This document shows positions 12,419-53,628 of a stretch of 64,000 nucleotides of DNA, in pieces (the first letter of the stretch is position 1; every line of letters starts with the position of its first letter). The DNA lies in assembly GCF_964204645.1 (NCBI RefSeq), contig NC_134036.1, positions 11,015,859 through 11,079,858 on the forward strand, read 5' to 3'. Origin of the DNA: Tubulanus polymorphus. Its lineage: Eukaryota > Animalia > Nemertea. The position numbers were made by a program, and so were the translations under genes. The notes beneath the pieces are model-generated. The model was not told the origin of the DNA and searched no databases. It saw only the letters and a program-made list of their open reading frames with translations.

Positions 12419-12845
12419 ATGGATGATAATATTGATATTATTCCTCATGATATAAAGAAAAATAAATTAAAAATATATTTAGAAAAAAAAAATATTAGAA
12501 TTTGAAAGTGACTTAAAGATAAAAAACAAAAAATATTTAAAAAGTAAAATTATATATTATTTGATTATAAGTGGTTCGGTTACAATTAGTTCTGTAATAA
12601 CATTTCTAGCAATATTCAGTCCATTAACACCTTTAGCTATATCAATTGGTGTATTAGGATTAAGTTCAAGTGTTTTAACCGGAATAAGTTCAAAATTAAA
12701 TATAAAAAGTAATAAAGAAAAAATCAAAACTAATGTAAAAGAAATTGATAAATTAAAGAATACACTAGATTATATAATAAGTTCAAATGGCCATATAACA
12801 GTTGAAGAACAAGATAAATTATTAAAAGAATTAGTTAATTATTAA
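12419..12845 (+). pseudogene. Two-TM protein, frameshifted in A-runs
   Basis: TAAATG start at 12419; hydrophobic ORF 12561-12845. Confidence 0.6.
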
Positions 12846-12861
12846 TTTTTTAATTATATAA

Positions 12862-14145: not shown

Positions 14146-14160
14146 TTTTTTATTATATAA

Positions 14161-15592
14161 ATGGATGAAGAAATTCCATTGGATCCTTTAGATGAACCTG
14201 GTATAAGTGATGAACCACAACCTGATTTTAATGAAACTAATATTGATAATGATGATGAATCAGCATATACTTCTAATTCTAATTTAGCAGATAGTGGTTC
14301 TAAAGCCCCATCAACACAAGAAAATGATAGAAGAACTAGATCGAGAATAGATCCTGAAAATGAAAATCCAGATTTATGAAAGAAAAATTTAGAATATAAT
14401 GAATTTATGTATAAATTCATACCTGTATTTAAAGATTCTGTATATAATATAAATGCTAGAGGCGCCAGACTTTTAGTACAAGATTTAAAATATTTAGATG
14501 GTGAATATTATTATCATTTGAAAGATGATTATTATATTGATATCTCTTATAAAAAACAAGAAAAAATATTAAAAGAATCAACTTTGGGAAAAGAACCAGA
14601 TAGAATTAAAAGAATAAGTAATAGTAATGTAATAACTGATCTTACCGACACAGAAATAAATCAAAATAGAAGAGTATCTAAACAAAGAATTAATGACTTA
14701 TTTGAAACAATCGATGATAATTCAGAAAAAGAAACAACTTCTGAACAGAATAAAACTTCCAAAACTAGTAATCTTAAATCAAACACTGAAGTTCAAACTG
14801 AAAAACTTTTACCGAATGGATTACTTGATGCAACAGATCAAGAAATAGAAGCTTTAAGTATGTTTTCTAAAAAAACAATTAGAGAAATAATAAGTATACG
14901 AAATGAAGCCGATAAAATTGCGCGCGAAAAAAATATTAGATATAATAAAATTAAACCTTTAGAAAATAAATTATTCGACACCAGAAAAGAATTAGAACAA
15001 TTAAAATTAGATAGAGAATTTAAAGTTATTGAAGAAATTGAATTTAAAAAAAGAAATGCATATTTAGAAAAAGAAATTGATGATTTAGAATATAACATAG
15101 ATTTCAGAAAGAAAAAATGAAATTATTATTAAAATCATATGATTATTGTATTAATAGATTAAAAGTTGTTGTTAAAGAGTTAATAATAAAACCAAATTCT
15201 GACATATCACTAAAAGATAGAATAAAATTATTATTTAAGTTTGAAGGAATACCAATTCTTTCAATTCTAACAGCTGTAACTATGTTATTTACAACAATTG
15301 GTTTAGCAATATCAAATTCTACTCCTACTCCCAATAAACCGGATAAACCCCCAGATAGTAATTCTATACAAGATAAAGTTAAGGATGGTTTAAAAAAATA
15401 GCAAAATATTTATGGGAACTATCTAAAAAATCTGCTGCAGCATTACCAGGAATTATTGCATCAATTGTTGGTTTTATATTCAAATCTGCCGGGAATATTC
15501 TTAACTTTGCTGCTGAACATATTATTTTATTTTTAATTACAGTTGTAAGTGCAATTATTTTTGGGTTAGTTAACATGATAAAAAATAAATAA
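14161..15592 (+). pseudogene. Acidic N-terminus / coiled-coil / multi-TM protein (fragmented)
   Basis: ORFs 14161, 14407, 15117 plus continuation KSAAALPGIIASIVGFIF to stop at 15592. Confidence 0.7.
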
Positions 15593-15611
15593 TTATGTTT
15601 TTGTTAAATAA

Positions 15612-16858
15612 ATGAGTGGGAGTTATATCAATCCTTCTAAGAATCATAGAATATCTAATGCTATTAAAGCAGAAAGATCACATCATATAATTACTCATAA
15701 CCTTTCTAATATTAATCCTGATGAAACTTTATATGTTAGAATTCCTCGATTAACACAAAATACTTTTTATGTTCCAAATAGTATTTATTTATCAGCCGAT
15801 ATAAAAGTAATCGGTAATAACAATAATTATGTTGTTGATAATGTTGGGAGATATTTGATTAAAAAATTAACTATAAAGATTTGCCCAGAAACAGCTTTCT
15901 CATTAGATGATTATAATCTATTTATGCATTATAAAAATTTATGGTTAACTAAAGAAAATAGAAATAATATGATATTTCAAGGCATCCAATCAGAAAACCA
16001 AAATAAATTAAGATCAGGAGCTAATGACGCAATAGTGACTCGTACCGCAGATAATTTGATAAAAAAGATTTATGGAAGCAAATATAAAATTCCATTAGAC
16101 TTTGAATTGATAAATAATAATGCGCCTTTATATAAATATGCAATTCAAGAAGATGTTATATTAGAAATAACATTTGCTCCTGTAAATGAAATTGTTTTAT
16201 CTAGCGTTATTAAAGATTTGGGTTATAAATTATCGAATATATGTTTAGAATATGATACAGTAACTGATGAACATATTTCAAGTATAATTCAAACTAAATA
16301 CAATCAAGGATTTTCATTATTATATGATTATATTGATAAATTTAAAACTGTAACTATTAATGCAAATGATGAAATAATTTATGAGAATATTAACTTCCCA
16401 AGAAGATCTATTAAAGGTATATTAATATTTTTTACCATTGCAACATATTCTAATGGTGCAATACAGGTTGATAAGTATTAAAATCCTGAAATAACAAAAG
16501 TAGAAATAACTATCGAAGGAATAGCAAATAAAATATTTTGTCAAGGAATGAGAATGATAGATCAATGGCCAGAAATTAGAAAACATTTTATGAATGAAAA
16601 AGTGAAATCATCTGAAAATTGTAATATTAATCGAATTGATTATTATACCGGTAATAAATATGCATTATGGTTAGATTTTAGAACAACAGAGGATAATTCA
16701 TTACATGGTTCTGGAAAAAAATTACAAAACACTAAAGATGGAATACAATTATTCATGACAAAGAAAAAAGGAAGCCTAAATTTCAAAATGCATATTTATA
16801 TTATATCTGACGCGCAATTAAATATTGTAAATTCTCAATTAAATAGTGTTATGTATAA
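15612..16858 (+). pseudogene. Major capsid protein (double jelly-roll) of element A
   Basis: ETLYVRIPRL, VDNVGR, YG.KY.IPLDF, LSNICLEYD, RRSIKGIL, ALWLDFR, HGSG, ISDAQLNI; single in-frame TAA at 16479-16481. Confidence 0.88.
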
Positions 16859-16891
16859 GAATTTTAACTTTAATAAAAATTTATATAATAA

Positions 16892-17815
16892 ATGGAAGGA
16901 GGTTAAGTATATAAACATATTCCATATATCGATACACATGCAAATAATGATGGTTTATATTATGTAATACCTTGTAATATAGCTTTGATATTTGATCCTA
17001 TTTTCAAAATTTATAAAACTAAACTAATAGAAATCGATAATAATAAAAGTGAAGTTGTTGATAATTTAAGTAATGTAATTGATAATAATGCAATACCTTC
17101 TACATCTAATAATGTAATACCTTCTATATCTAATGATGTAATACCTTCTACATCTAATAATGTAATACCTTCTACATCTAATAATGTAATACCTTCTACA
17201 TCTAATAATGTAATACCTTCTACATCTAATAATGTAATACCTTCTACATCTAATAATGAAATAATATTAAATATTAGTGAAAATAGAAATTATTGTGATT
17301 ATTGTTAAGGTTAATTTTCAAACGCTCCATCAAATTGGAATAAACATATGAATACAAGGGTACATATTACTAATGTTATAGAACGTGTTGGTTTAAGAGA
17401 AGTTATAGAACACCCATTTAGACATGGTACAAAATTTGTTTCAAATAAAAAAGTAAATGGTAAAGAATTATATGAAGATTTATTATTAGCAACACCTAAT
17501 AAAGATGAATTAGATTTAACCGATGCTAATAAAATATTAGGATCAAACATTGTAAAAGAAATATTAGGAGCAAACACTAAGAAAGATGATAATGAAATTA
17601 TAGTTACAGATAAGCATATTGATAATAAAGATTCTATGAAACATAAAGTAGAAAATAATGATAAATTTGAATGGATGAATAAGCATAACAATGAAACAAC
17701 TACTGATGATGCGGTAAAAAGGATGAAGAATAAGTATAAAAATAAAACAACTATTGATGTAGATTCGGTAGAGCATTTGAATAAATTGTTAGGGTATGAT
17801 AATGAAAGTGATTAA
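16892..17815 (+). pseudogene. Repeat-containing C2H2 zinc-finger protein (three in-frame stops)
   Basis: TAAATG at 16892 is in frame with ORFs 16985 and 17348; YCDYC...WNKHMNTRVH finger. Confidence 0.6.
17084..17257 (+). repeat. 24-bp coding minisatellite x7 (NNVIPSTS)
   Basis: AATAATGTAATACCTTCTACATCT repeated in tandem. Confidence 0.95.
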
Positions 17816-17847
17816 AATATTAATTATATTTAACTCAAATAATAATA

Positions 17848-18240
17848 TTGGTTGAAAATTGTATAAAATAATAGTTAATAAAAAAGGGGGTTTTAAGTAT
17901 TTAAGGTATCTAATAGGGTATCTAATACATATCTAATACATATCTAATACATATTATTTGAAAATACCTTAAATTATATTTCTTTTTTAAATTTATATTG
18001 AAACCTTAGTAATAATAAATAACCTTTATTATTTTAAAACTTATTCATATATTAGTTGAAAAAATAAAAATAAATTGGTTGAAAATTGTATAAATAATAT
18101 TTATTTTAAAAAAGGGGGTTTTAAGTATTTAAGGTATCTAATAGGGTATCAGGTATTAGGGTATCTAATAGGGTATCAGGTATTAGGGTATCTAATAGGG
18201 TATCAGGTATTAGGGTATCTAATAGGGTATCTAATACACA
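17848..18240. repeat. Central non-coding repeat region between the convergent arms
   Basis: ~75-bp direct repeat (17849 and 18076), 11-bp TATCTAATACA x3, 27-bp GTATCTAATAGGGTATCAGGTATTAGG x3.5. Confidence 0.9.
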
Positions 18241-18253
18241 GATATATAAATAG

Positions 18254-18865
18254 TTATTTTATAAATTTATATTCATATGGAAATTGTAGTCTCATTAATA
18301 ATTTTGAACCTTTATTATTCTTTAATTTATTCATATATTCATCATGTAATTCAGTAGGTATAATTTGATTTTCTTCCAATGATTGTTGCATAGATTTTCT
18401 ATCTTTGTTATAAAATAAAACTAGAAATCTTATATTCTCCCTAATGTCTTTAACAATTGAATTATATTTTTGATTTAAAACCCATGTTGTTATCCCAAAA
18501 TGTCTCCCAGAGAAAGCTAAATAACATAACTCACTTTCTCTAACGTTTGAATCATGTAAATTTGCGCAATCATCTATAATGAATAATGTATTTGATCGTT
18601 TGTAAGTATCAATTGCTATTTTAATACAATTATCTAAATTTTCTTTTACTGTTTTAGGATTTAATATAATAAACTTTTTTATCTTAACTATATCTCTATT
18701 ATATGTTTTATTCATTTCATAAGTAGGACAAAATAATATTATGTTATCAAAATGATTCTTATAAATAGTTTCTAACAAATCTAATATGAAATGTGTTTTA
18801 CCACAATTGGTTACTCCAGTAACTAACATATTATGCGGTATAAATATAGATAAATCTTTATTCAT
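18254..18865 (-). CDS. A32/FtsK-HerA genome packaging ATPase of element A
   Basis: Walker A GVTNCGKT, Walker B LFIIDD, SGRH arginine finger, VLNQ. Confidence 0.92.
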   Translation of the reverse strand: MNKDLSIFIPHNMLVTGVTNCGKTHFILDLLETIYKNHFDNIILFCPTYEMNKTYNRDIVKIKKFIILNPKTVKENLDNCIKIAIDTYKRSNTLFIIDDCANLHDSNVRESELCYLAFSGRHFGITTWVLNQKYNSIVKDIRENIRFLVLFYNKDRKSMQQSLEENQIIPTELHDEYMNKLKNNKGSKLLMRLQFPYEYKFIK

Positions 18866-19979
18866 TTATTCTTTTAATTTTACTAGATAAAATCCATTCA
18901 TTAAATTTATCATCATATCCTTTATATTTCACCAAAGAATACTTTTTTCCTTTAAGAGTTTTTGTTTTCAATACTTTTTCTATTTTATATTCTATTTCAT
19001 CTGGATTTGGTACAAGTGATAATTCTTGTTCATAGAAATAACCTAATATTTCTTCATCTTTTAGATCTTCTAACTTATAAACAAATGGTTTAGTTAATAT
19101 TATCTTTTTAATCTTGAATATTTCTTCTGTAAAATTAGGGGTATAACCTTTATAAAATGTTTTTCTATATTTAGATATGCTAACGTGTTGTCCTATCTTA
19201 AATTTAGGTTCTCCAAAATCATGTGTAACAAATGCTCCATATAAATTATTCCAAACTATTTCTGAATTATCTTCTTTTCTAGCTTGTATAGGTTTCATAT
19301 TTATAGAACTATGTTTAGAATTATTATAACCTTTCACTAAATCATCTAACACATCGATATATTTGTATGTTTCATTAGCAGTATTTCCATATATATCCAC
19401 ATTAATATTTCCACATTCTAGTTTTCAATGTTTTATTAAACCTTTCTATAATAGATGCTTTTTTATCTGAATATGTTGAAAAATAATCTACATCGTTATC
19501 GGATAATAGTTTTTTGACATGTTTGTTATAAAATTCTTTACCTTCATCAAATTGTATCTTATCTGGAATAGCTTCTTTAAATATTGATTTAAAAGCATTT
19601 GTCACTTCTATACCAGTTTTATTTTTGATTGGAATTGACCATGCGTATCGACTGAATATGTCTATAACATTTAATATCCAGAAATATCCTTTGTTGTATT
19701 CCTCTAAGTTCTGTCAATTAAATCTGCTTGCCATTGTTGATCGATATATGAAACCATAACTTTTCTTGTTAAATAAGTTTTATCCATTTTCTTGTGTATT
19801 TGATATGTTGGTTGATTTTGTAACCATGATTTCAATTCACTTTATTTCATATTACCATTTTCTTTATCAGATTTAATTTTATTCCATAATTCTGTAACGT
19901 TAGAATATGATACTTTACTTCCTGGGTTGTAATATAACTCTCTTAAATATTGTTCTTTTTTCATCTTATTTTAATCCAT
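18858..19979 (-). pseudogene. Retroviral-type (rve) integrase with C-terminal chromodomain
   Basis: LYYNP, WQADL, IDIFSRYAW, IQFDEGKEF, IERFNKTLK, GYTPNFTEE, Y.IEKVL..LVKYKGY..NEWI. Confidence 0.92.
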
Positions 19980-20346
19980 TAATAATAATTTAGATTTAGT
20001 TTCAATGGCTTTATGATTCGACTTATTTTCTGGTATGATAGGTTTATCATCGTTGGAATCATCTTTATCATCAAATTTGAATTTTGATTTATACAGTATA
20101 TAGTACACCGGATAATATAATAACTGTTACTAATCCAATTGTAATATATAATTTATAATTACTTCCAGCATTAGAAGAATCAGATGGATTATTATTTGAA
20201 TCAATATCAGATAATTTCTGTGGTTCATTTATATCAGTTAATTTCTTTTTCTTAGCTTTTTTAATTCAGCAGATCTTTTACCTAATTCTCTTGACCATTT
20301 AATTTGTTTCTCGGATCTAGGCTTCTTCTTTAACGCCATCACTCAT
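19980..20346 (-). pseudogene. Basic N-terminal, single-TM hypothetical protein (fragmented)
   Basis: TAAATG start at 20346; lysine-rich segment followed by a hydrophobic stretch; fills the gap between neighbours. Confidence 0.45.
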
Positions 20347-23426: not shown

Positions 23427-23505
23427 TTTAATACTAAATTTTTTGCTAAAATTGATTTTAGAAGTTCTTCATTTATATTTTATTCATGTATATGAATATT
23501 TTAAG

Positions 23506-23662
23506 AGTAATAGGGGTTCAGTTGTTCTAGGTTAAAGGTTGAACGGGCGGGTGAGTAAAAAATGAAAAATATGAAAATAATAATAATTTCTACTTGAATG
23601 AGGAGTGAAACTCATAAAAAATGAAAAATAAATTCGAGCGTGCGAGAATTTATTTTTTTTTT
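23506..23662. repeat. Element-A terminal sequence (partial hairpin)
   Basis: AGTAATAGGG..TTGTTCTAG.TTAAAGGTTG..GTGAGTAAAAAATGAAAAAT..GTGCGAGAATT matches 34295-34380. Confidence 0.8.
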
Positions 23663-24816: not shown

Positions 24817-27800
24817 TCAATATCCGAACGGAAGCGTGTTATACCGATCTGCGGGGTCGAAAGCTCGTTTAGTATAAACCGCGCGATATATTTTTCGTTC
24901 GTCTCTATTGTAAATAGAACAGTCCTTGATCTTTCTATTAATTTTGTCGGGGTTTGATATGTAAAGATGGTCGTACTTTTCTTCGACAATTATATCTACC
25001 ATGGAACCAAAGTTTACAATTTGTTTGTTTCGAAAATTCAAATTGATCCCTTTAACTTTACATTCAGTCGAAAATGTATTATCTCTAGGACTAAATACCC
25101 GATATGCATAATTTTTTGGTCCAGCCGAAACAAATTCTGAAATAAACGACCCCTCCCCGTATTTATCAACCAATTCATCGGTCATATCACCCAAAAAATT
25201 CCCGGTCGGCGGATCCCATTCACCAGGTTTCACGCTATAAATAATGGAGTCGGTATCCGTGTATAGGGTTCGTTCCCCTAATTTCTCCATATAACTATAG
25301 AGAATAAGCCGCGCATGAGCCGTTGTGAAAGCTGCTAAGGCGACACTGGTTTTGTTTGTCGATTCGACAAATTCTTCGCGTTTTTTTGTAATGCACTCTT
25401 AGCACCTCGTCATTACACAACAACAAATCGCTTATCTCTAAGGTTTGATCTAAAAGCATTCTATATAATTCCCCGGGGTCCGAAATATATTTGGCCGTCG
25501 TTTTATTTTCATTCTGGCCGAGTTTACCCCACATCGAATTCAAACATAATTTCGCGACAGTTCGCATCCCCTTGGCTTTTTTAATTTTATCTTCTTCGAG
25601 TTGGATACCCTCCCTTTCTAAATAATCGGAAATGAATTTATCCTTTTGTTCGCGAGACATATCTTTAGCCGGCCAGCCACTAGCTTCAGTTTTAACTTTG
25701 AGGAATTTCCCTATGTAATCCTCGAATAAACCCGTTTCATTAGTCTCCCAATTCCAAATTTCATATATATCTAATATCTTATAACCAAGTTTCACTGCTT
25801 TTTGTACCTCTAAAGTTACCCAGGTACCGGTTATCGAACGTTCGTCAGCCGAGTGATGACACTTTTCGCGCTGATTGCTTTCATTAGCGCACGTTCGACA
25901 CAATGGGAAAGTCAATTTCCCATACGATCTATACGGGAGTACGGGTAGATATAAACCCCGAGGTGGTAAAACCTTACACTTGATCAACCCGTAATAATTT
26001 TCGATATCGCCGAAGTTTTCAGTCACAATACTCGGATGACCGATCGGATAACTACAACGACTGTTGACGTACGGGTATAACGAACATATGTCGATGTATT
26101 TGATTTTTTCTTCACCCTCGGCTTTGCGATAAATTTTTATCGCGTTCGTACGACCTCCGAAAAATGCGTCACGTGGTTGCAATGGATCGAGAAAATCAGA
26201 TTTCTTGACAAAATCTGCAAACGCGTGGTTTTCTTTAACCAAGTCACGATATTCGTGTTCCCAAAATTCTACCAAATTGTAACCCAAAGCTCTAATTTTA
26301 GATGTTTTTTTCTAATGTGGCCTGATATAATTCACCAATTTTACGATCGGGTCGTACCGGAGATATCAAATCCGGATTTTTGAAACACTTAGGGCATCCG
26401 TGATTTAAACAACCGTGAAATTCATACACGGTATTGGATTCGGCGTGATAACCGTCTACTTTAAAGTGGGCAATCGATACTTCGCCGCCGTTCAACGCGT
26501 GTTGGACTCTAATGTCGTTCGTTGTGGATACCCATTTCAAGCAGTTAATTGCCATATTGGAAAATTTTGCATTAGGCTTATAGCCACCCGGAGGGATTAG
26601 CCCTATTGTTGTTGGTTTCAAAAAGTTTGTTCGTAACGCCACATTGCACGCCGATGCTATAGTGATGCTATTACGAAATGGATCAACAGCCGAAAGAGCA
26701 AAGAATTGATGTTGAAAATTTACGACCGATTGTATTAGAATATCCACATCCGAACGACAGTATTCGACCAACTCGCGCTGCATGTCAAAAATGAAATTTT
26801 CAGACTGCCGATCGCTATGCCACTTTATTAAATCAGACCGCTCGCTCGAACTAAGACCGTCGGGATTGTAATATTCTATATCGGGAATAGGTCCGACGTA
26901 ATCAATATTCTCGCGAGTGCAGAATTTATACGGAAAATACCCTTTTTTTCAATTCTGGAATACCTAGTGTTTCAGGTAATTTACCAAGTTTCATTGGTAG
27001 AAAATTCAGTGTGTCCAAAAACTTTATGTCCAAACTTTTAACGGTCATAGTCATTATTTTCCCACCGTTTGGTACAATATCTGGTAATATACCTTGTGAA
27101 ACAAAATATTGCAGAATAAAGTAACCGTCAAAGGATTGAAAATTATGCGCAAAAACAATGGCGCCCCTATTCTCTTCCGTAAACAACCACTCGCAGAATT
27201 CAGAGTCCGTTTTAAACACGTGTTCGTGTTTACCGCAATAATCGCAAACCGAGTCGGGGTCCGTTTCGACCATTCACACATTTGACATATTCTATGCGCT
27301 ATACCCAAGACGACAACGTGGTTCGATTCCACAGTCGTTGTTTCGAAATCGAATGCGATGAACTTTCTATATTTCAGCTCATCGCCAGCCTTGTCCGCAT
27401 CCAAATACGGGTTAATTAGTGTATGAGGGGTGCCCTGTTCCTCAGAAACTATGTGATCCTGACTTTTGGCAACCCCGATGTAGCAAAGATGATCGCTCGG
27501 TTTTCGCTCTTTACATGAACTGCAGTATTTATGACCGCAGTCGTGAGATTTGAGATCAAGCTTCTTTCTAGGTACAATAGACCCGCATTGTAAACATCTC
27601 GCCTTTGAATCGCATAAGCTTGACCCATCCATTCTCGGTCTGCAGTGTCTGGCTAAACACGCCTCCGATTTAAAATAAATGTTGCATTTTTTGCATAAAT
27701 GGTCTCCTCTTTGTTGTCCGCAATTGCCTAAACAAAGTCTGCATTTATCCGTACAGCTATGTCTCTCAGCATTCGCATACCCCTTTTTACAAAAATAGCA

Positions 27801-29872
27801 AAAATACGGACGACATGTAAATGCAGACATCGAGGTAATTACGTCAAAATGACCATCCGTATATAAAAGTTCAATTTTTTTACACCCCGCCCCTTTGATT
27901 TTTAACACAACGTTATTCGCCTCGTAAATTATCTGATACGCGATATCATTACCGGTTGCGACTATTATAAAGTAATCCGATAATTGTTTCGCAAACGCAT
28001 CCAATTCGCGTAGTCCACACATGCCTTGGGGCACACCAGCATTCGTGTGTAAGGCAATTGCCGCATCCTTCTGCGTCGGACGATCGCATTGACGAATAAC
28101 GTTATAACGCGGATCATTATCCGCACGCGCCTTCGCCACCACTAATGACCTAGCGAGACACAAATCATCGTCATTATCGATCGAGACAATACAGCGTTTG
28201 TTTTGTCTAAACGACTCGAAATTTACCTCGACTCGTTTTCGACGGACACCACCTAGCGGCATTCGGATGAATGTACAATGGAAAATTAATCCATCCAAAG
28301 ACAAATCCTCATTCGACTGTAGAACACGGATTGTTCTATCGAGTATATATTCTACCGTTAGTTCGTCCAACGGTACGAATGGAAATTCAATGTTTCCATT
28401 GAGATCCGCGTGCTCGATAGATATCCGGATCCTGTCATTCGAACGAGCGTCCAACATTTCACTAATAGCCGCTAAAACGTCAGTTAGATAGTTCCGGACA
28501 GTGGTTTGTGTGTCCTGCGCTTCGAGTTGGCCGTTATTCTGGTCGTCATGTGGTATCACGGTAACCTTGTACAGCTCAGTTTTCGTATTGAACCTTTTAC
28601 TGTGCTGTACACGGTTCTGTAAAATAATTGAAACATTCTTTTTATTCATTCGAAATAGCTCGTCATTATATATGTTATACGATTTTGCTGCATTCAAATA
28701 CTTACCCTGACCAGTTTAATATTACCCCGTATTATTTCGTCGGGGTTTTCAAAGTGAGGGCGCTTCGAACACGGTACTTCTTCCTCATCATCAATATCGT
28801 CGATAGGACGCTTCGATGTTGAGGGCTGTGGCGCGCATACCTCGCTGTGATTTCTTAACTCGGCGATTGATGGGAACGAATTCGAGCATCGCGAGCACGT
28901 AAACGACCGTATGGTGGATGGTGGCGGTGGTGGCGGTCGTGGTAAGGTCGATGACTTGTTAGGTCGACACGTCATCATATGCCGTACCAAGCTATCTTTA
29001 CGAGATAGCGTTTTACCGCATATGTCACAATAATGCTAGAAAAAAAGGAAAGAAAAAATACCCTGATTATATTAAAGATGAATAACAATATTAGCAATTC
29101 ATGAGTTCAATTACTTACAGAGTTAGATGTCCCAGGGTGAACGGGGTGACAATCAGGTAGTGGCTGAGGGTTTACACACGGTAGAGGGTTTACACGTGGT
29201 TGTTCGACGAATTTTTGACACGTTTTGGCGTGTCGACGCATGTTGTCCACGCGTCCAAACACCTTACCGCACTTGATGCACTCAGACCCCTTCAATAGAC
29301 AATGACATTGAATGTATATTAAAAAATGATATATAGCGGTTTTTCTTTCGTAACTCATAATTTAAAACTTACCGGTTTAGTCTCCGATGTGACAGGTTGT
29401 GCGGGCGGTGATGAGGGTTTGGCAGCTTATCCTTTACACGTTTTAACATGCCTCTTCATATTATCTTTGCGGGTAAAAGACTTGCCGCATGTGTCACATT
29501 GCCAGCTATCAGTAGTTCCAAAGTGGGAAATCAAATGGTGTGCCAGTGTTTGCTGGTTAGCACAATTTAGACCGCATATTTTGCAGTCCCATATTTGCTG
29601 AAAATATAAAATAGGTATTTAATAATACGTTCAACCGCGTAGTAATTAAATGAGCGGTTCAAATCTACTTACCGGAAGCTACAGGCCCCATGCTGTTGCG
29701 CCGGTGGGGATGCCATACAGATGACGGTGTGGTGCGTCAAATCGCGCGCACACGCAAATGCTTTGCAACAGCTCAAGCACTTGAACCCCTTCTTACCAAC
29801 GTGAAGTTGTTGGTGTTGTTCCAAGACGATTTCATTGACAAAAGTAGCTGGGCAGTATTGACAGGAATACAT
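24817..29872 (-). pseudogene. polB: Spliced protein-primed DNA polymerase B of element B with N-terminal zinc-finger exons
   Basis: Exons 29872-29673, 29597-29373, 29289-29119, 29035-28706 and 28616 onward. Motifs CLARSLVV, FDFET, AHNFQSFDG, YCRSDV, PRDAFFGGRT, YIDICSLYP, KLCLNSMWGK, YTDTDS, GPKNYAY, KVKGI; several frameshifts. Confidence 0.93.
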
Positions 29873-29932
29873 TTTTCTGTAAGAAAAAGAAAAACAAAAA
29901 TGAGTATGTGTTATTTTTAAAAGAGACTAATC

Positions 29933-30256
29933 TTGAGTGTTTGCAAGTCAATTATGGGTCGACTATCGAGTGCCTATTCAATGGACGGGTTATTACGAAC
30001 GCTACTGTTCACGATTTTGGATTACACGCGAATACACCAAGTGTTACTGAGTCAAAAGCATTTAACATATATTCAACGTTTAGCCAGATATTTTGTAGAT
30101 TGCGACGAACCAGATGGATTTTGCATAGTTTTGAAAGAATTAAACATGACGGAGCGGTTCCTTTATAAAATTGTCGGCGCTATATTTTGTTTAGATGTGA
30201 TTGATCTTCAACCGGAGCGTAAATATTTCATTCGAAGAATTTATATCGATGTATGA
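29933..30256 (+). CDS. Possible hypothetical protein of element B
   Basis: 107-codon ORF between polB and the ATPase; no motif recognised. Confidence 0.3.
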   Translation: MSVCKSIMGRLSSAYSMDGLLRTLLFTILDYTRIHQVLLSQKHLTYIQRLARYFVDCDEPDGFCIVLKELNMTERFLYKIVGAIFCLDVIDLQPERKYFIRRIYIDV

Positions 30257-30561
30257 AAAAAGGCGACTAGTGTTTTATGAAAAACAATCAAACCGTGAAT
30301 ATGTAAAATCGGAAAATAGTCAAACCGTATTTTTAACTAATGTTATTTTGTCAAAACCGTATAGTATTTTCCTATTAAAAAAGTTCAAACCTCATTTCTT
30401 CAAAATTGAAAATTTTTAAAACCTCGTTTAGTAAAAATAAAGAATCTAGTAAACCATAAAACGCTTGAACTGTTTTTTCTAAAATATTAGCAACCTCCGG
30501 TTTCTATTAAAAGTGTTTTTTTTCGTTCGCTACTAAAACACATAAACACCAAAACACTAAG

Positions 30562-31190
30562 ATGGCAGAGTATGATGGTCCTAGATATTTATCTCACCCA
30601 TTCACGATGATAGTCGCGGGACCGACGGGGTCTGGCAAAAGCGTGTTTGTAAAAAAGGTTATAACGGAGAATCTTGTCGAAAAGAATCCTGATAAGATAT
30701 ATTGGTGTTACGCGGAGGCGCAACCCGAAATGTTCAACGAATTGGAAAAGTTTGGAGTGCGATTTGTAGAAGGTTTTTCCGGAGAACTCTACGATAAAAT
30801 AGATGGCAGCAAACGTGTATTAATTATAGTCGACGATTTGATGAATGAAGTAGTTTGTATACACGAGGATCCCATCATCGCAACATCAGCGTTATTACGA
30901 TTGTACAAAATATTTTCCCGAAAGGCAAAGAGTTTAGAACGATTAGTTTAAACTCGCATTATATTGTCGTTTTTAAAAATGCGCGAGATAGAAATCAAGT
31001 TCGCGTTCTCGCTTAACAAGCCGGTTTGAAAAGCGAAATTGAATCGGCCTTTAGAGACGCAACCAAGGAACCCCACGGTTATCTTTTACTGGATTTTAAA
31101 CCGAAAACTGATGAAAGATGGCGTTTGAGAACTAGAATTTTTCCTAGCGATAAATACCATATAATATACAAAACAAAGAAAATTCATTAA
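30562..31190 (+). pseudogene. Packaging ATPase of element B
   Basis: HPFTMIVAGPTGSGKS, IIVDDLM, then shifted frame TRGSHHRNIS, RTISLNSHY, PHGYLLLD, RLRTRIFP. Confidence 0.92.
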
Positions 31191-31228
31191 AAGTATAATT
31201 TTCGACTAATAACTAATAAAAGAAGACC

Positions 31229-31612
31229 ATGGCGCCGCGTAAAAACAACTCGTTACAAAGAGTGAAAAAATATATACATCATTTACACGTGTTGGGTAGA
31301 TGTAATAAGAAACAACGTAGAGCGTTGATAGAATCGGCTCCGTCAGACTTAATCAAGTGCGTATGCGAGATATCCAAAAACAGTTTAGCAGGAAATATAA
31401 AACATAGCAACAAAGATAAACGCGTGTTGAAACAACATAAACGTTACATACGCATGTTGGCCAACAATTCGATAGCCATTAAACATAAACGAGGAATAAT
31501 TTCGCAAAAAGGTGGATTTCTGCGATTCATTTTACTACCACTTTTGAAACCTATACTGACGTCTGTTTTAACGAACGCCGCAAACCGAATAGTAGATAAG
31601 GCAATAGCATGA
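31229..31612 (+). CDS. Conserved small basic Maverick protein (putative core protein)
   Basis: KQRRAL..DLIKCVCE..N.L.GN..; QKGG|F resembles an adenain cleavage site. Confidence 0.75.
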   Translation: MAPRKNNSLQRVKKYIHHLHVLGRCNKKQRRALIESAPSDLIKCVCEISKNSLAGNIKHSNKDKRVLKQHKRYIRMLANNSIAIKHKRGIISQKGGFLRFILLPLLKPILTSVLTNAANRIVDKAIA

Positions 31613-32280
31613 AGAACGTTGAAAAGTTAATCATTTTACCCGATTCCATGTTACCCTCGATACAAGCTTTTATCGCGAGTCAGGAACGTCAACAAGAAAA
31701 AAAAAACACCCGCTACCTACAACCCTCTAATGGATAACAAAATACCCGACGATCTCAAATACTTAAAGTATAATCAGTTATTGCAGCAAGAAATACATAA
31801 ATCATCTGTAGAAAAGGATATTAACCAAACGACACAAGATAATATAGAAATCTCGGGCAAATATACTACGCAGAAGATTATTGATCGGTTACCGCTAAGA
31901 TTTAGGAAAAAATGTAAATCCCTATTAGCATTTTTTGAAGATAATCCAGGAATTTTGAAACGGAATGATAAAGACGAACTGATTTACAAGGACAATTTAA
32001 TTCGCGGAAGCAACATTGACGATATTTTACACATGTCGTTAGTACAAACTAAAATGGATCAAGAATATATCGGTCTAGATCTGTATTTAACGAGTTGAAC
32101 GTACCATTGAGTCTTATTTCGAATAAAACGTTAAAGAGAAGTATCAAAGGTGAACTTACCGTTGATTTAGATACGTCGTTGTCTCCAAAGAGGAAGAAAC
32201 CAAAGTATGATCAGAGCGGATCCGGACTGTGTGGAGTGCGTGATGGCAATGTGAATTACACAAACTGGCTATCCTTTTAA
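31609..32280 (+). pseudogene. Conserved Maverick hypothetical protein (fragmented)
   Basis: DD.K...Y.Q.LQ, EL....I.GSNI.D, NVP.SLI.N, terminal W..F. Confidence 0.7.
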
Positions 32281-32574
32281 CTACTAGAAAACCTAATAGC
32301 GACTGTCAAAAAGCTTTGACCAATTACGAGGCTTCATTTTTGTTTGGGGGGGGGGGAGTGTCAGAGGTTAGAAAACCATAGTTTGATGTTGATACTATTA
32401 GTTAATTGACAAGTTGATATGATATACGAGAGTTAATTGGCTGTGCGGGTTTCATATGTGACCGAGTTACTAATAGTTAATTGGATGTACGGGTTTCATT
32501 GTTGGGTCAAGTTAATTCGATATTAATTGTGAATCGGCTATGTGGGTCTCATTTGTGGTCGAGTAAGCACGTTA

Positions 32575-33101
32575 ATGATGATTGAGGTTGTAAACGTTGT
32601 ATCCACTGCGCATTTGAATTGCCGTTTAAATTTAACCGATATTGCAAGAAAATTATGTAATGTCGTTTATGACCCCCGAAAGTTTAGCGGATTGATGTGG
32701 AAACATAGACGTATAAAAGGTAGCTGTCTATTGTTCGTTAATGGAAAAATGGTAGTGACAGGATGTAAAAGCGAGTTTAACAGCCGATGCAGTACACGGA
32801 AATTTGCTCGTTTGATACAAAGGATGGGTTACGTAGGGAACTTGAATAACTTGAAAATACAAACTATGACTGGAGTCGCAAAAATCGGTCGACGCGTAGA
32901 CTTAGTGCAACTTTCCAAAACAGTTGACGGTTGATTATAATCCTGAAATATTTCCCGGTTTTGTGTACAAATGTGAAAACGGAATAAAATGTATAGTACA
33001 TAACGGCGATACTTTAATATTGTCGGGTGCCAAAAAACTCAACGATTTTACAGGAAGCCTACGAAGAAGTTCTATTCTATACCATTCTTTGTTCCAAATA
33101 A
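32575..33101 (+). pseudogene. TBP: Intronless TATA-binding-protein homologue carried by element B
   Basis: NVVST, L.L..IA, YDPRKFSGL, LLFVNGKMVVTG.KS, RKFARLIQRMG, then YNPEIFPG.VY and LSGAK: the two TBP core repeats; two frameshifts. Confidence 0.88.
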
Positions 33102-33276
33102 AAAAGTCATTAAAAGCATATTGTTTTTTAAGTGTAAATAAAATTATGAGAAAAGATGAATTGGCGAAAGTTATTTTGTTGGTGTTGTTTGAAGCAGGAG
33201 GAGCCGAATTTCGAGTGTCAATTCAATAGAGTTAATTGAGTATTGAGCACGTGTTGCGGTAGTACAACTGTAATTG

Positions 33277-33997
33277 ATGAAAGCCGAACAGAAAAGATTC
33301 CTGGCGAATCAATATTATGGCGTCGACAAAGAAGGAAGTTTTTCAAACGCAAATACATTACTACGGATTTGTAAAAAAGAAAACAAAAATATCTCTTAAC
33401 GTGAGATACGAGACTGGTTAGCCGAACAAGAAGTTCATACGTTACACGCCAAAGTACGAAAGAGATTTCCCAGAAACAAAACTATGGCCTATCGAGTAAA
33501 CGAACAATTTCAGGTTGACTTGTGCGACGTTTCGAATATTTCGAAACACAACGACGGTTACAAATTTCTATTGACGGCTATTGATGTATTGTCTAGATAC
33601 GCGTTCGCTATACCGTTAGAGAATAAATTTAATTCTACCGTTGTGGATAGTTTTAAAAAGATTTTCAAGATTTGGAAACCTAGCGTTATTCAATCGGATT
33701 CAGGCACAGAATTTGTCGGTTCAAAAACGCAGGCGTATCTGAAAAACGAGGGCGTACGTTTTTTCCAAAGTAAAAACGAAGTAAAATGCGCTTTAATCGA
33801 AAGATGGATACGTACTTTAAAATCGAAAATGTATAAGATATTTTCGCATAGAAATTCATACAGATATATTGATTTGCTTAAAGATATAGTAGCGTCATAC
33901 AATAAATCGTTTCATCGTAGTATAAAAATGGCTCCAAACGATGTCAACGAGTTAAACGCGTACAAAGTTTTCAAGAATCTATACGGTACAATCCGTA
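33277..33997 (+). pseudogene. rve integrase of element B, 3' truncated
   Basis: YY....GSF, WL..Q..HTLH, FQVDLCD, IDVLSRYAF, QSDSGTEF, IERWIRTLK, YNKSFHRSIKMAP. Confidence 0.92.
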
Positions 33998-34445
33998 GTA
34001 AATATGTTCTGAATTTATATGTATTTCCTTTTAATCCTTCATATTCTGAGTGGATAACTAATTTATCTCCATAGTTATTAGTAACTGTATCAATATTTGT
34101 AATTAAATATTTCTTATGAATTGTTAATTCCGTTAACTTTTTGAATTTATAATCTGCAGATTTTACATTTGTGATATCTTTAATTCTATCTAAAAATGAT
34201 TTGTTGTTCTCACTGTGTACTTGTTCACTCTCCATTTTTATAACATATTTTTTATTAAAATTGATTTTAGAAGTTATTAGATTAATTTTGTAAGAGTAAT
34301 AGGGAATATGTTGGTCTAGATTAAAGGTTGAGAGGTTGAGTGAGTAGAAAATGAAAAATAAATTGTGCGAGAATTAATTTTTCATTTTTTACTCACTCGA
34401 CCTTTCGACCTTTGATCTAGAACAACATATTCCCTATTACTGTTA
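33998..34445 (-). mobile_element. Element-A family fragment: terminal hairpin joined to the SSB-like gene
   Basis: 34235-33998 encodes a close paralog of 10246-10490; hairpin at 34295-34441. Confidence 0.88.
34295..34441. repeat. 147-bp imperfect palindrome (70-bp arms, 7-nt loop)
   Basis: AGTAATAGGGAATATGTT...AACATATTCCCTATTACT with 7 mismatches. Confidence 0.95.
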
Positions 34446-38295: not shown

Positions 38296-38570
38296 TACTT
38301 CCGCGTACGTCACGGTTTGTTTACTTCCGGTATATTCAGAACATGCGCAGTGCGAAACCTAACTGTGGCCGGTAGAAAAAATCGCTTACCGTGAGGGAGG
38401 AGGGAAAGTGGGGGATAATTCCAAGATGGCGTCTTTTAACGGCTATTGTGAAATCATGAACGAGTTTCGACGAAAAATATTTCGCAATAACAAGTGAAAC
38501 CGTAAATCGTGTTCGGGCAAGTCATTTTCTGACTATAAAAACGCGATGTAAATCCATAAATTAATCATTC
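38296..38570 (+). promoter_or_regulatory. Pol II-type promoter of the PC4 gene
   Basis: ACTTCCG x2, ACGTCA, CAAGATGGCG, TATAAAAA at 38534, TCATTC at 38565. Confidence 0.6.
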
Positions 38571-38599
38571 TGTTCCGAGACTTCGAACCATCAACATAC

Positions 38600-40577
38600 A
38601 TGATGAATACGACTACTTGACAAAGTATTTTAGAAATATGTAGTACGACGAAGTCATCTACTCAATCTAGAAAAAGAAAACGCCCGACGCACAAACTCGC
38701 CTTCAGTAAGTTTCTACGCAGTCGCGGGCCCGTTGAAAGTTCAACGGAATACCTGGAACTATGACCCCGAGCCTCATTATCTAGGATCGCTTGTATATGC
38801 CAGTGCTAAAACGTGGCAGGGGGTAAAACGTATAGATTTACGAACTTTCGAATGCTGCGAACGACGAAAACAACTATACCCTACTAAAAACGGTATTGCT
38901 TTGGATCTCCAAGAGTGGGTACATATAGATTATTGTAAAGCCGATATCGAACACGAAATTGCGCGCGTTAAAGAAGATATCGATTACGTGGGTGTGGTGA
39001 CCGTTGGTCGTTCGAACTTTATCAAAATATATAGATCTAGTCACGATCACCGTATTTACGTAGATATCCGAAAATACGATCAACACGATGAGCTTTTCGA
39101 CGTAAATCCGACTAGATGCGGCGTTAAACTAACATTGGAAAAATGAAAAAAATTAAAAGACATTAATTTTACAGAAGATATATCCGAACTGGCTAATATG
39201 AGACCGTGCTGGTATGATTCGAGGCTGTTCGAATATCACGGATACCGGATACCGGACACCTAAATACCGGATACCGGATACCCGAGATTGCGGAGTATAT
39301 AGCGCATCGGGTCTAATGGTCAGCGGTAAACGGCAGTTCGTGTGAGATCTAGTAGAAGAATAAAAGGCCTATATTATTTTCATAATACATCGGTATATGC
39401 TTTTCAAGTACAGTAGCATACAAATGTTACCGGTATAGACAATTCAAACAGATTTATTGCTTCCGAGTAATAACACGATTACATACGACAGTCACGGTAA
39501 CAAACAGTAGACAGAAAATATTTTTTATCATTCTGCCAATTTGAACGGATTACCGAATAGACCGTTTTGGGCAGAGCTACTGTACAATACAAAATATCTT
39601 TATCATTCAGTTTCACGAAGAAGGCCATTTTAATAAAGTTAAGCGTTATTGACGATCTATATTTTCATGATCTTTAGAATTAAATTTAACATCAGGGTAA
39701 ATAGTCACTTAGAGGTATGGTAGGTACCGGTATTTGACGAACTGATTTTTGAAGGTTATACCAAAACAATTGGTGTCCAGGGGTGTTGATTTTCGACGAT
39801 CGCCATGGACTCAATTTCATTTTTAGGGACATCGTGATTGAGAATGAAATGTAGACATATCGTCCAATAAATAGAATATACCGAATATTCTCCTCCATAA
39901 AATAAGAAAACGAATTTTAATTCTTTGTTTGTAAATACTTGTATTTCATTGGTGTTCAGCTCAACTATTCCATCGTAAATCAACAAATACAAAATGTAGA
40001 GATCTTTAAAACAAACTTTATTAGACGAAACTTTAGACTCGCTTATGGCCTTCAAACTTGAGATATAGGGCCTAGCAGTACTCAGCCCTATTAATGAAAG
40101 GATTTTACAGAAAAACCAAAAAGGGCCACCAATACATATCCATCACCAGTGAAGTAAGATAATAAAAAATGAATATAACGTTTAACTTCACCTAACCAAA
40201 GAAAAACAGTATTCAGAAAAAAATATGTATAATATTGAGATCGATGATGACACTTAAAACGTGAGAGAAGGCTGTAATCAGGCTAGCATTAAGACAAATA
40301 AGCTGGTTAGCCGCTGTAACAATTTGACATAAATGAATTGTATGTCGCGGCAGTACTACTTACAACAACACGGAAACGAATCCTTAGACCCGATGCGCTA
40401 TATATTCCGCAATCTCGAGTATCCGGTATTTAGGTGTCCGGTATCCGGTATCCGTGATATTCGAACAGCCATGATTCGAGTCACTCGAATCAGGAATACA
40501 GGTGTCCGCACTGCGCAAAAGACACAAGCGGGGTTAGAAAAGCACTCGAATACGGAATAATGATAACCCAAGTATAA
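38600..40577 (+). pseudogene. Tandem PC4 (SUB1-like) domain protein with C-terminal Zn motif, split by a MITE
   Basis: IDLR.F...PTKNGIAL...EW and VDIRKY...PTRCGVKL; removing 39223-40479 restores PCWYDSSHSNQEYRCPHC. Confidence 0.8.
39223..40470. mobile_element. Non-autonomous Mutator-like (MULE) element
   Basis: ~90-bp TIRs starting GGCTGTTCGAATATCACGG; perfect 9-bp TSD ATGATTCGA at 39214-39222 and 40471-40479. Confidence 0.9.
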
Positions 40578-40680: not shown

Positions 40681-41582
40681 TTTACTCTATAATAATCTAG
40701 CATTTTGGTCGTTGCACAGACCCTGGATACAATCATCAAAGAATGTAATTAAGTAATTGAGCAACAAAAACCATTGACCCATCGTTAACATCTGCCATCT
40801 GAAATATCTGGTCAGCAAACATCTGCAGCGAAAAGTAGCTATTGCGTATAAAATACTCGTCAGAAGATCTCGAAATCCATAACCAAAATGTCGAGCAAAG
40901 CAGGAGCAAGATTTTTTTATTGCAACTACGCTGGAACGCCGGTGTGCTGTGTGTGCCTCGAAAGACGGCGAGCGTTGGTGGCCTGTGAAAACCATCCCTT
41001 GGCTAACTATATTTGTATGGGATGTTTTATTCAAATGGTAGAACTACGTCCAGAGGACCAACGGTATATTACGTGCCCAATGTGTCGCCTGGTATGGTAT
41101 TTCGAGTTGATGAAAGCGCGCCGTTCGACGTTGAGTGGTATGCGTGAAAGGCCACGTTAGGAAGACGCCGACTAAGAAGAGTTATGAAAACGATATACTG
41201 CAAAAAAAACACACGGTTCTTTTAAGAACCACCCCAAAATTCTCAGAAAGAGACAGTTTTGCTAAGCTCCTCGCTTTATGCCTCAGTTTTTCTTTTTTCT
41301 CAGAAGATTAAAATGTGTAAAAAAATACATCAACCATTGTGAGGACAGAACGGGCAATATATCACCCGCTCTAACCAAAAGGGGGTTAACTAAAGTAGTG
41401 AAATTCTATATTTTACGAATTTTATACGTTATTATTCAGGTTTACTCTACAATAATCAAGCATTCTGTCGTTGACCAGCCCCTTCATACATTATATTATC
41501 AAAGAACGTAATTAAGTTATTGAGAAACAAAAACAATTGATCCGTCGTTAGCATCTGCCGTCTAAAATATCTGGTCAGTAAA
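40681..41582 (+). repeat. Diverged ~145-bp direct repeats at 40681-40820 and 41441-41582
   Basis: TTTACTCTA.AATAATC.AGCATT...ATCAAAGAA.GTAATTAAGT.ATTGAG...AAATATCTGGTCAG.AAA in both. Confidence 0.85.
40888..41160 (+). CDS. Small RING-finger protein (putative E3 ligase)
   Basis: CCVC..C.NH..CMGC..CPMCR. Confidence 0.7.
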   Translation: MSSKAGARFFYCNYAGTPVCCVCLERRRALVACENHPLANYICMGCFIQMVELRPEDQRYITCPMCRLVWYFELMKARRSTLSGMRERPR

Positions 41583-41737: not shown

Positions 41738-43028
41738 CTATATATGACGTTCTTTAGTTACTTGTAGTAATTCGTCGAAAACGGCGTAAACAATCGAATT
41801 CACGTTATGCGGTGAAGCTTCATCATATCGCATTTCGATTTTTAACGACCCCTTTTTAATTAGTGACAGGTGCGGTTGATCCCCGTACTCGGGCAACATG
41901 TTGAACCCACAAATGAAATTGCCTTTTTTGAAATCCTCACGTTTTATCCCAATTCCTTCGATTTTATACAATAAACCCCGGGCTATATATAAACCGTGAT
42001 ACACTTCACTACCATCACCGCGAGAGTCTATAATTAACGGCGAGTTTAGTGCATGGATATTATCAACGGTCACCCCCTATATAATTCAACGAATAATCCT
42101 TGAAATCCAACGGATTCTTTTTGTAATTACCGCTCAACGCGTCGTCGTCCACTAAAGCTAAAACAATAGCCTTAGGTATCTCTCCGACGAAAACGGAATC
42201 CTTGATAATTGTTCTCAGACCTCCTTGAATTTTTAACGATAATAATTCAGTTCTCGAAAAATAATATTTTGCTGTACTCTTTTCCAGTGCTTTAACGTGC
42301 GCTACTAAAACAGAACTATCCAGTTCTAGTTTACGAATGTATAGTTAAGCGCTTTCAATCTTTATACGAAAATCTGGGTTTTCGGCAGGGGAAATTAGAG
42401 CAAAACATTCCTTTGATCGAGTTAGTTTTATTTGTAAATCTGTATTGTTGATGAAAATCTTATTCATTCTCATTACGTCGCTGTACAAACGAGTATAAGC
42501 GCAAACCAGTTTACTGCCTTTAGTGTAGTTATTCCTTCTGACCAAACCGGAATTTGCGTTTGGTAAAGTAGGATCGATATTTGACTTTTTTCCGGCTTCG
42601 TCTTCGGCATAAAGATCGCATTGTAGCCAGCTGCTATTTTTAGTATACGAGTTGTAATTAACCATATTTTCCAGCTCACATTTGAACGGGTATAACCCCC
42701 CGTCGTGGGTAACCACTCGGTCGTTAAGCGTAATTTGCATATCGCTAAATAGACTATTGGCGCCATTGATCATTGAGACTGGCTTTTCAGGACCCACATT
42801 AGTTCAATCGGCGTTAACTATTTTGAGCTGTAGTTCTAAATACGTGACGTTTAAATCTAAATATTGTTCAGTTCTGAATACAATCGGTCCCATATCGTTA
42901 ATCGACGTAGTGGGTTCATAGCTGACGTATCGGCATTCTTTGAAATCTATCTGTGTTCCGGGAACTGTAAACAGATCGAGTTCGGACTTGACGGACAATG
43001 GCGAATCCTTGCGTACTAATAATGACAT
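41738..43028 (-). pseudogene. Major capsid protein (PY) of element B
   Basis: KSELDLFTVP.TQ, SLFS....LND, YPFK, H.KALEK..AKY, KNP..F, G.LKIE, VYA.FD. Confidence 0.9.
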
Positions 43029-43599: not shown

Positions 43600-43785
43600 A
43601 AATATGGTATTATCTAGCGTTGTTAAAGACATGGGTTATAAATTATCGAATATATGTTTAGAATATGACACGGTAAGTGATGAAAATATTGCTAACACAA
43701 TTCAAACTAAATACAATCCAGGATTTTCATTATCATATGATTATATTGATAAATTCAATACTGTAACTATTAATGCAAATGATGC
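43600..43785 (+). pseudogene. Internal fragment of element-A family major capsid gene
   Basis: VLSSVVKDMGYKLSNICLEYDTV..TVTINAND, near-identical to 16190-16371. Confidence 0.92.
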
Positions 43786-53100: not shown

Positions 53101-53628
53101 CAAAAATTGACTAAAGAATTCTCGTATACCTGTATAACTGGGATCTAACTTATTTTTCGAGCTATCTAGGGGGTTGAGTATAATATTAAAGTCTCCAGCG
53201 AAAATAGTGGGGGTATTATCAACGCTGATTTTTTGTTCGAGGACTTTATAGAATTCTGATTTTTGAAGATTTATAGCCGGGTTGTATATATTAATTATTC
53301 TTAATTTTGAGTTGCTAGTTTTATTTGTTAAATAGATGTGTGATAGTCGTCCTGGTATTAAAATCTGAAAGGTTATATAGTGTTCGGCTGCTATTATGTT
53401 GGGGATTAGAAACATGGTTCCAGCCTGCTGTTTCGTGCCTGGGTTGTTAAAAATATGGTTGTTAGTCTTGTTTTCAAGGTATTTGATCGTTCTTTCAGGG
53501 GGGTTGTGGGTTTCTTGTAGTAGGATAATTGGTTTTCTAAATTTTTTAATTTGTGCGACAATGTCTGGAATTTTGGTTGATAAGCCCTCAGTATTGAGGG
53601 TAACTACGTTTAGAGGATTTAGATCCAT
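50194..53628 (-). pseudogene. ORF2: AP endonuclease - reverse transcriptase - CCHC, one in-frame TGA at 51834-51832
   Basis: LQETH, GDFN, RLDRFY, TDH; PGPDG, WRPISLLNVDYK, DQEKAFD, QGCPLS, YADD; CPHC..ETLDH...C. Confidence 0.95.

Follow-up and report, generated by a model that had tools for sequence, protein, structure and literature searches.

A frameshifted TATA-binding protein gene in a nemertean Maverick and its family of core-only relatives as candidate late-gene promoter factors

Our literature search found no study of the control of capsid and packaging genes in Mavericks, and a gene for a TATA-binding protein (TBP) carried by such an element raises the matter in concrete form: is this a working factor of the element, a decoy aimed at the host, or the remnant of a host gene that happened to land there? 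The locus considered here lies in a 64-kb stretch of the Tubulanus polymorphus genome (hereafter the window; all coordinates are positions in it) and contains an intronless, core-only TBP-family gene extending from the ATG at 32575 to the TAA at 33099-33101, the latter overlapped by AATAAA at 33097-33102. The sequence-only reading had described it as a core-only, intronless TBP placed between Maverick genes. Pfam confirms both the family and the surroundings; the gene consists of three frame pieces, whose breaks had gone unmentioned. The TBP-bearing Maverick spans about 24.8-43.5 kb of the window. Its TBP gene follows the packaging-ATPase block and precedes the integrase, and the rest of its gene set is arranged as follows (TBP is given separately below):

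24817..28715, minus strand: protein-primed DNA polymerase B, split into five or more frame pieces (Pfam DNA_pol_B_2 on three pieces)
28697..29926, minus strand: four C2H2 zinc-finger segments (Pfam zf-C2H2 family matches on all four)
30562..31190, plus strand: packaging ATPase, broken (Pfam Adeno_IVa2 / Pox_A32; tblastn with the ATPases of related loci L002 and L011)
31229..32098, plus strand: two ORFs of 127 and 122 codons in the ATPase-TBP interval (ORF list)
33277..34074, plus strand: retroviral-type integrase, broken near its start (Pfam rve, E 4.5e-10)
38534..39143, plus strand: canonical TATAAAAA at 38534, then a broken PC4-domain gene with ATG at 38600 (Pfam PC4, E 1.5e-9)
40852..41157, plus strand: RING-like Cys/His segment (Cys/His spacing by eye)
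41741..43028, minus strand: probable major capsid protein, broken (tblastn E 1e-46 with a 433-aa protein of L002)

Assignment of the element to Mavericks is based on protein-primed PolB, retroviral-type integrase and ATPase, all recognized by Pfam, and on the probable capsid found by tblastn: the gene at 41741..43028, lacking a Pfam match, is taken by us to be the major capsid protein from the usual order of Maverick genes. The polymerase shows 47% identity to the polymerase end of L011, and the first of the two small ORFs (orf127) matches orf107 of L002 (tblastn E 4e-11). As to the PC4, RING and finger array proposed earlier to accompany TBP, PC4 and zf-C2H2 are supported by Pfam, whereas the RING candidate, for which no Pfam match was found at E 0.01, is left with its Cys/His spacing. 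The element has breaks in its polymerase, ATPase, integrase, PC4 and capsid genes alike and has received pieces of another, AT-rich Maverick, one of which (inverted repeat I2) cuts off the 3′ end of the integrase. Search for terminal inverted repeats (seed 14, length 30) gave no inverted pair bounding the element, both ends of which are overlaid by other insertions.

Several further features of the window deserve mention. A second AT-rich Maverick occupies 7686-20000 (PolB, capsid, ATPase, and integrase, partly broken) and has no TBP match; 33998-34266 is an inverted 90% copy of its segment 10215-10483, and 43604-43784 is a 90% copy of 16191-16371. A 74-nt hairpin at 34291-34445, having arms 89% complementary and related copies at 86-147 and 23489-23571, is probably the end of another mobile element. 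A 100-codon ORF at 29954-30256 (plus strand) contains VDCDE, near an LxCxE-like motif, and yields no Pfam match, while the interval between TBP and integrase holds a hydrophobic 27-codon ORF (33146-33229, plus strand), doubtful as an ORF, with an in-frame three-base length difference in other copies. An L1/Tx1-like retrotransposon with a zinc-knuckle ORF1 and an endonuclease-RT ORF2 in two frames (labels by eye) lies at 50194-54638 on the minus strand.

The TBP gene is not a single ORF: breaks near 32931 and 33047 divide it, and its first ORF, of 119 codons, is terminated by the TGA at 32932-32934.

32575..32934, plus strand: TBP piece 1, whole repeat 1 and the start of repeat 2 with QTMT, closed by TGA after break 1
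32933..33046, plus strand: TBP piece 2, YNPEIFPG ... IKCIVHNGDTLILSGAKK, with His at the fourth-Phe position
33047..33101, plus strand: TBP piece 3, last helix to TAA, resembling by eye the C-termini of relatives

Piece 1 matches Pfam TBP at E 4e-24 (84.7 bits versus the curated cut-off of 22.9) and solved TBP cores from PDB at E about 1e-27, being 41% identical to a fungal TBP and 50% to P0003, the closest single-core match to the window TBP among the best 150. Piece 2 (YNPEIFPG ... IVHNGDTLILSGAKK) finds its best PDB match at E 3e-7 and shares 70.6% identity with P0006 over 34 aa; its Pfam TBP match (E 0.0055, 17 bits) is under the curated cut-off. Searching the 64-kb window with five TBP queries gave matches at the TBP locus alone. 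Because of the two frame breaks, no whole protein can be produced and the copy is dead, so that the protein encoded here cannot be the working factor formerly envisaged; the window copy is a fossil, decayed together with the rest of its element.

Whether the decay extends to other copies in the species could be followed in same-species reads and contigs aligned to 32300-33400 (three of four runs, at most two samples). The 264 raw reads are distributed over identity classes of at least 99% (41 reads), 95-99% (131), 90-95% (76), and lower (16), and read depth, about 11 just upstream of TBP, rises to 30-42 over the gene, implying that several TBP copies or haplotypes exist. At break 1 the length is unlike that of the window in 22 of 25 reads, at break 2 in 19 of 34-35 with loose ends in 10 more, and all contigs spanning either break differ from the window there; the two breaks are therefore peculiar either to the window copy or to its assembly. 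Breaks at other places occur in some of the remaining copies, as shown by four inserted bases in 8 of 34 reads, and one contig runs from the 3′ half of TBP into the integrase start with 23 differences. Within the best-supported 40 of 92 variant rows, a non-random selection, 12 of 20 variant codons are synonymous compared to 21% expected (p 1.8e-4), and no difference affects the His codon. The Asp of IVHNGDT is private to the window copy, 31 of 33 reads from another individual differing at this place.

Comparison of residues relies on yeast numbering, obtained from alignment to solved TBP and from Table 1 of PMC12529657. Three of the four intercalating phenylalanines, F99 (PRKF), F116 (LLF), and F190 (PEIF), are kept in the window TBP just as the sequence-only reading had it, along with N69, V122, T124, and P191. 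The altered second repeat, also pointed out there, proved to be real: His replaces F207 (IVH), and QTMT stands in place of QNIV/QNMV with Thr at both N159 and V161, leaving both the four-Phe set and the Asn69/Asn159 pair of canonical TBP incomplete. To learn how far these changes reach, the family has to be considered as a whole. Among the best 150 matches from a search of 1.84 billion representatives, 27 are full-length core-only TBPs with a W-x-H-x-x-I-type motif, and a profile search added 55 further members, bringing the family to at least 82 proteins, mostly 164-190 aa long with a core of ~170 aa and no N-terminal extension. None has an informative name; some come from contigs of megabase size, and their clusters count up to 198 members. 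N159 is kept in none of the 82 (Thr 77, Cys 3, Ser 2), compared with 187 of 189 cellular TBPs taken from the same searches, and V161 likewise in none (Ser 60, Thr 21, Ala 1) versus 184/189; P191 survives in 18/82 versus 184/189, and position 207 is occupied by Phe in 67 family members, by Tyr in 7, and by other residues in 8, versus Phe in all 189 cellular proteins. On the other hand, N69 (79 of 82), V71 (77), and F116 (81) are retained. The counts for N159, V161, and F207 make QTMT a hallmark of the family and loss of the fourth Phe a trait of a sub-lineage, represented by the intact proteins P0006, P0271, P0272, and P0273, all of which have His at F207 within KCIVHxGGTIILSGA and show 67-87% identity to P0006. 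As judged from these residues, the repeat-2 changes of the window TBP are inherited and not a consequence of copy decay, with the Asp of IVHNGDT as the only private one.

Surfaces facing protein partners are largely preserved in the family, where TFIIB-facing acids are found at 188 (E/D in 78/82) and 186 (E/D in 68/82) and helix-2 basic residues at 133 (K/R in 72/82) and 145 (K/R in 69/82); the window TBP has N186 and E188, and Asn or His occupies E186 in its sub-lineage. AlphaFold models, built for the intact relatives P0003 and P0271, are complete TBP saddles with pLDDT 97 and 91 and TM 0.95 and 0.97, respectively; over the solved TBPs of yeast (1ytb), human (1cdw) and Arabidopsis (1qn3) TM spans 0.93-0.97 (Foldseek).

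Origin of the family was approached with a quick IQ-TREE phylogeny (LG+G4) of 79 rows, made up of window piece 1, L001, 44 members of the 82-protein family, and 33 other proteins that were cellular or unplaced, with TRF2 and named NCLDV sequences absent. The 44 family proteins and window piece 1 form one clade (SH-aLRT 97), inside which piece 1 groups with P0003 and P0006 (support 87) in a six-row set uniformly devoid of F207 (81); as piece 1 ends before the F207 column, this grouping rests on other columns. The window TBP thus carries the marks of the family, that is Thr/Ser/Cys at 159, Ser/Thr at 161, a repeat-1 W-K/Q-H-R-x-I-type motif, and a place in the common clade. The phylogeny with host TBP that had been suggested as a check puts the window piece outside animal TBPs: in AU tests on 35 rows, a tree that unites it with eight animal TBPs is rejected (p 0.0015). 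One that places the entire family with these TBPs is not rejected (p 0.32), and the root position of the family in the tree may be a long-branch artefact, an ancient capture from an animal being compatible with the same test. Two TRF1-like insect proteins fall with canonical TBP, and P0048, P0125, P0128, P0142, and P0143, likewise unnamed and core-only, are TBP variants that branch apart from the Maverick clade. Structural matches in Foldseek share 9-19% identity with viral TBPs (the best one at E 1.5e-12 in BFVD) versus 27-32% with cellular TBPs, which weakens the comparison with NCLDVs made from the sequence and disfavours, by identity only, an NCLDV origin. A word-indexed search with piece 1 returned one protist-like TBP and nothing else, and scans of IMG/VR for TBP with piece 1, A2, P0006, and A6 found nothing; the scan with A3 gave L001, an archaeal-type TBP set aside as unrelated, and four loci at 24-38% identity from a prokaryote genome scan (three archaeal, one Clostridia MAG) were not used.

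Genomic context was available for a sub-clade other than that of the window, in which F207 is kept. Scanning metagenome records with an alignment of 17 proteins of this sub-clade yielded 12 contigs of 1.1-7.6 kb, corresponding to 10 distinct loci because two near-duplicate pairs are included. A Maverick gene stands beside TBP in all 12, integrase in eight (tblastn) and PC4 in the other four (Pfam), and the longer contigs add capsid, ATPase, zinc fingers or polymerase, so the screen of related Mavericks proposed earlier places TBP next to integrase or PC4 in every contig. The TBP frames are open over the whole sequenced extent, and dN/dS, another of the proposed checks, amounts to 0.07-0.18 in the seven measurable pairs of relatives (of 28 pairs, 20 are saturated and one has no synonymous change). 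The TBP family is clearly under purifying selection.

If these proteins are maintained, one may ask which promoters they could serve. In the 10 distinct related loci the word CATAAGA occurs within 120 nt upstream of 15 of the 27 genes other than TBP and PC4, in 13 cases at a distance of 33-48 nt, and before none of the 16 TBP/PC4 genes (Fisher p 1.5e-4), bearing in mind that it was chosen by eye on the very loci counted and that these loci are related to each other. It precedes seven of the eight integrases, and it turns up by background in 6% of windows on the plus strand, a figure that includes the real sites, and in 2% on the minus strand. Upstream of TBP/PC4 genes of the relatives CCAAT is found in 11 of 16 cases, and a canonical TATA box precedes 2 of 10 TBP genes. 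Given the box's absence before all 16 TBP/PC4 genes, the TATAAAAA at 38534, previously offered as a substrate for a DNA-binding assay, is more likely an early promoter for host TBP than a target of the element's own. In a Maverick with no TBP match, a control consisting of a single partial contig of 12.3 kb, boxes starting with T stand at a similar distance, 37-52 nt, from four such genes, among them those for ATPase, integrase, and minor capsid. L011 keeps Pro191, yet CATAAGA precedes its integrase, with a box at one of its seven other genes, and a simple code linking Pro191 to the first base of the box fails on this locus. Short zinc-finger/poly-His ORFs and a zinc-finger-ATPase fusion at L002:4974-6174 are each situated behind CATAAGA; with this word before finger genes in relatives, fingers would be late genes and not early regulators. 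Proteins of the CATAAGA clade (P0164-P0182) have Asn at V122, often at T124 as well, and often His at F190; Asn at 122 and 124 is also given for KSHV ORF24 in PMC12529657, and convergence of the two on a polar DNA face appears possible from these residues.

Corresponding candidates in the window element are of another kind:

30505..30513, plus strand: candidate late box TATTAAAAG, 57 nt before the ATPase ATG
31185..31193, plus strand: candidate late box CATTAAAAG, 44 nt before orf127
33108..33116, plus strand: candidate late box CATTAAAAG, 38 nt before the 27-codon ORF and 169 nt before the integrase ATG

Three reading frames of the element have YATTAAAAG ahead of them, namely the ATPase, orf127, and the 27-codon ORF, and AATAAAAG is located 84 nt before the capsid ATG. 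The word ATTAAAAG, common to three of six genes of the element, gave p 0.009-0.03 for 8-mers and 0.04-0.23 for 6-/7-mers in blind tests, rising to 0.67-0.99 without the doubtful 27-codon ORF, and window-wide enrichment of it was not seen (6 found versus 4.9 expected). ATTAAA is a variant of the poly(A) signal, and ATTAAAAG in the window element may be such a signal, as may CATTAAAAG at 31185 because of its overlap with the ATPase stop. Besides, a 14-15 nt word CGAACCATCAACAT at about 38580-38595, before PC4, is common to the window and two distant elements (L002 and L004) and is possibly a start-site or leader element.

The reading that we prefer, with a probability of about 0.6, is that intact TBPs of this family would be late-gene promoter factors recognizing an element-specific variant of the TATA box and acting with host TFIIB and Pol II, "early" and "late" being labels drawn from gene identity. 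The TBP and PC4 genes would be early and transcribed via host TBP, in line with CCAAT (11/16) and TATA (2/10 TBP genes) upstream of them. The element TBP would still bend the minor groove, its saddle, Asn69, and repeat-1 phenylalanines being kept, and the repeat-2 changes (Thr for Asn159 and Ser/Thr for Val161, often with replacement of Pro191 or Phe190) would alter reading of the 5′ end of the box, to which the window sub-lineage would add Phe207 to His as an extra change at the same end. The kept acidic stirrup would then recruit host TFIIB and turn on the integrase, capsid, ATPase, and zinc-finger genes. Crystal structures of TBP place F190 and F207 at the 5′ end of the box. For KSHV ORF24, which reads TATTWAA late promoters, PMC12529657 states that T at position 1 is preferred owing to the proline corresponding to P191; combined with the structures, this would locate the protein changes and the change in CATAAGA at one and the same end. 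Of the captured basal factor supposed earlier to redirect or decoy host Pol II, the Maverick-borne basal factor is retained, and reading of the element's own late promoters is favoured over the decoy. A bolder version, to which we give somewhat less than even odds, is that a widespread lineage of animal Mavericks possesses the smallest known viral late switch, a bare TBP core re-specified at repeat 2 for a private TATA variant and still working with host TFIIB and Pol II, whose sub-lineages could have been re-specified again, towards CATAAGA in one case and possibly towards a ATTAAAAG-type box in the His-207 clade; this would amount to a natural library of orthogonal TBP-promoter pairs.

Other explanations have to be weighed against the late-promoter reading. 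The protein might be a decoy or antagonist that sequesters host TFIIA, TFIIB, NC2 or Mot1 or blocks host promoters, with host TBP reading the boxes of the element; partner-facing acids and helix-2 basic residues largely kept alongside lost canonical contacts of repeat 2 are what such a protein should display, but its DNA face would hardly need to be conserved, as it is (N69 79/82, F116 81/82, Thr159 77/82), rather than eroded, and a positioned C-starting box that avoids TBP/PC4 genes is left unexplained, so we regard this as unlikely. General supply of a relaxed-specificity TBP, which would sustain transcription of element genes and some host genes where host TBP is scarce or replaced (for instance, in germline), without any private promoter code, gains from a fold essentially the same as that of cellular TBP (TM 0.95-0.97), from V122, T124, and P191 kept in the window copy, and from a window box whose p of 0.009-0.23 is lost without the 27-codon ORF. 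The absence of N159 and V161 from every family member, together with the box of non-canonical sequence in relatives, suggests that reading was changed, not merely relaxed, and we find this explanation rather improbable.

A role outside transcription, in which TBP bends DNA at element ends or the origin during replication, integration or packaging and PC4 serves as a single-strand binder, is brought to mind by the position of TBP beside integrase or PC4 in 12/12 related contigs; the box lying at promoter distance from start codons and the kept TFIIB-facing acids make it quite improbable. Least credible, to the point of a very slim chance, is a neutrally decaying host TBP retrocopy confined to this one element, the outcome that would have undone the sequence-only reading. 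The gene is indeed intronless and its window copy has two frameshifts, and against this stand the rejected grouping with animal TBPs (AU p 0.0015), just 41% identity to cellular TBP, several copies 90-99% alike in the species with one contig reaching the integrase start, and the synonymous excess among copies (12/20 versus 21% expected); the Maverick neighbours in 12/12 contigs and the purifying selection in relatives likewise disagree with a lone decaying retrocopy.

The late-promoter reading is directly testable, since a self-encoded TBP and its matching box reduce to one 170-aa protein and one 7-bp word. If it is true, even elements of 15-20 kb keep an early/late cascade, independent of herpesviruses and giant viruses, and the family provides natural altered-specificity TBPs in which two near-invariant contacts (Asn159 and Phe207) are broken while selection continues. 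The value of the fossil copy in the window is that of a pointer to the His-207 sub-lineage.

Among known systems, cellular TBP (PF00352) shares with the Maverick protein the two-repeat saddle and N69, F99, F116, F190, and E188, all kept in the window copy, and differs in that the latter is borne by a mobile element, lacks an N-terminal extension, is about 40% identical, and has N159/V161 replaced and, here, His for F207. TRF1 and TRF2/TBPL1 are similar as TBP cores with altered DNA contacts (no TRF2 sequence was identified among the search matches). TRF2/TBPL1 loses repeat-1 Phe residues; in the Maverick family F116 is kept in 81/82. NCLDV TBPs have the viral TBP fold in common with the Maverick protein and, according to PMC7221094, mostly come with their own TFIIB and show about 40% conservation at one TFIIB-binding acid; the Maverick family differs from them by its 9-19% identity, by a TFIIB surface kept in 68-78 of 82 proteins, and by the lack of a TFIIB family match in Pfam among 30 window segments and 21 segments of relative loci. 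A "TBP" label appears in figure legends for MELD viruses with adintovirus-like PolB (Starrett et al., PMC8502044; preprint 10.1101/697771), again in a Polinton-related genome, but it is a legend label, with no analysis of family, residues or promoters in the available text. Our literature searches turned up no work on a TBP family of Mavericks or on its promoter, and supplements of PMC8502044 and PMC7221094 may list such proteins. A functional parallel is the TATT-binding protein of beta/gammaherpesviruses, a virus-encoded TBP-like factor that serves host Pol II at late boxes of non-canonical sequence, early genes having conventional promoters, an arrangement that the Maverick protein would share. 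ORF24 of KSHV (PMC12529657) is built of several domains, retains N159 together with the four Phe, is devoid of the acids that bind TFIIB, and depends on five additional viral activators, in contrast to the Maverick TBP with its bare ~170-aa core, lost N159, and mostly kept TFIIB acids. The Maverick TBP most likely works in the manner of herpesvirus TATT-binding late factors and is itself, by the tests applied, neither one of these, nor a canonical TBP, nor an NCLDV TBP.
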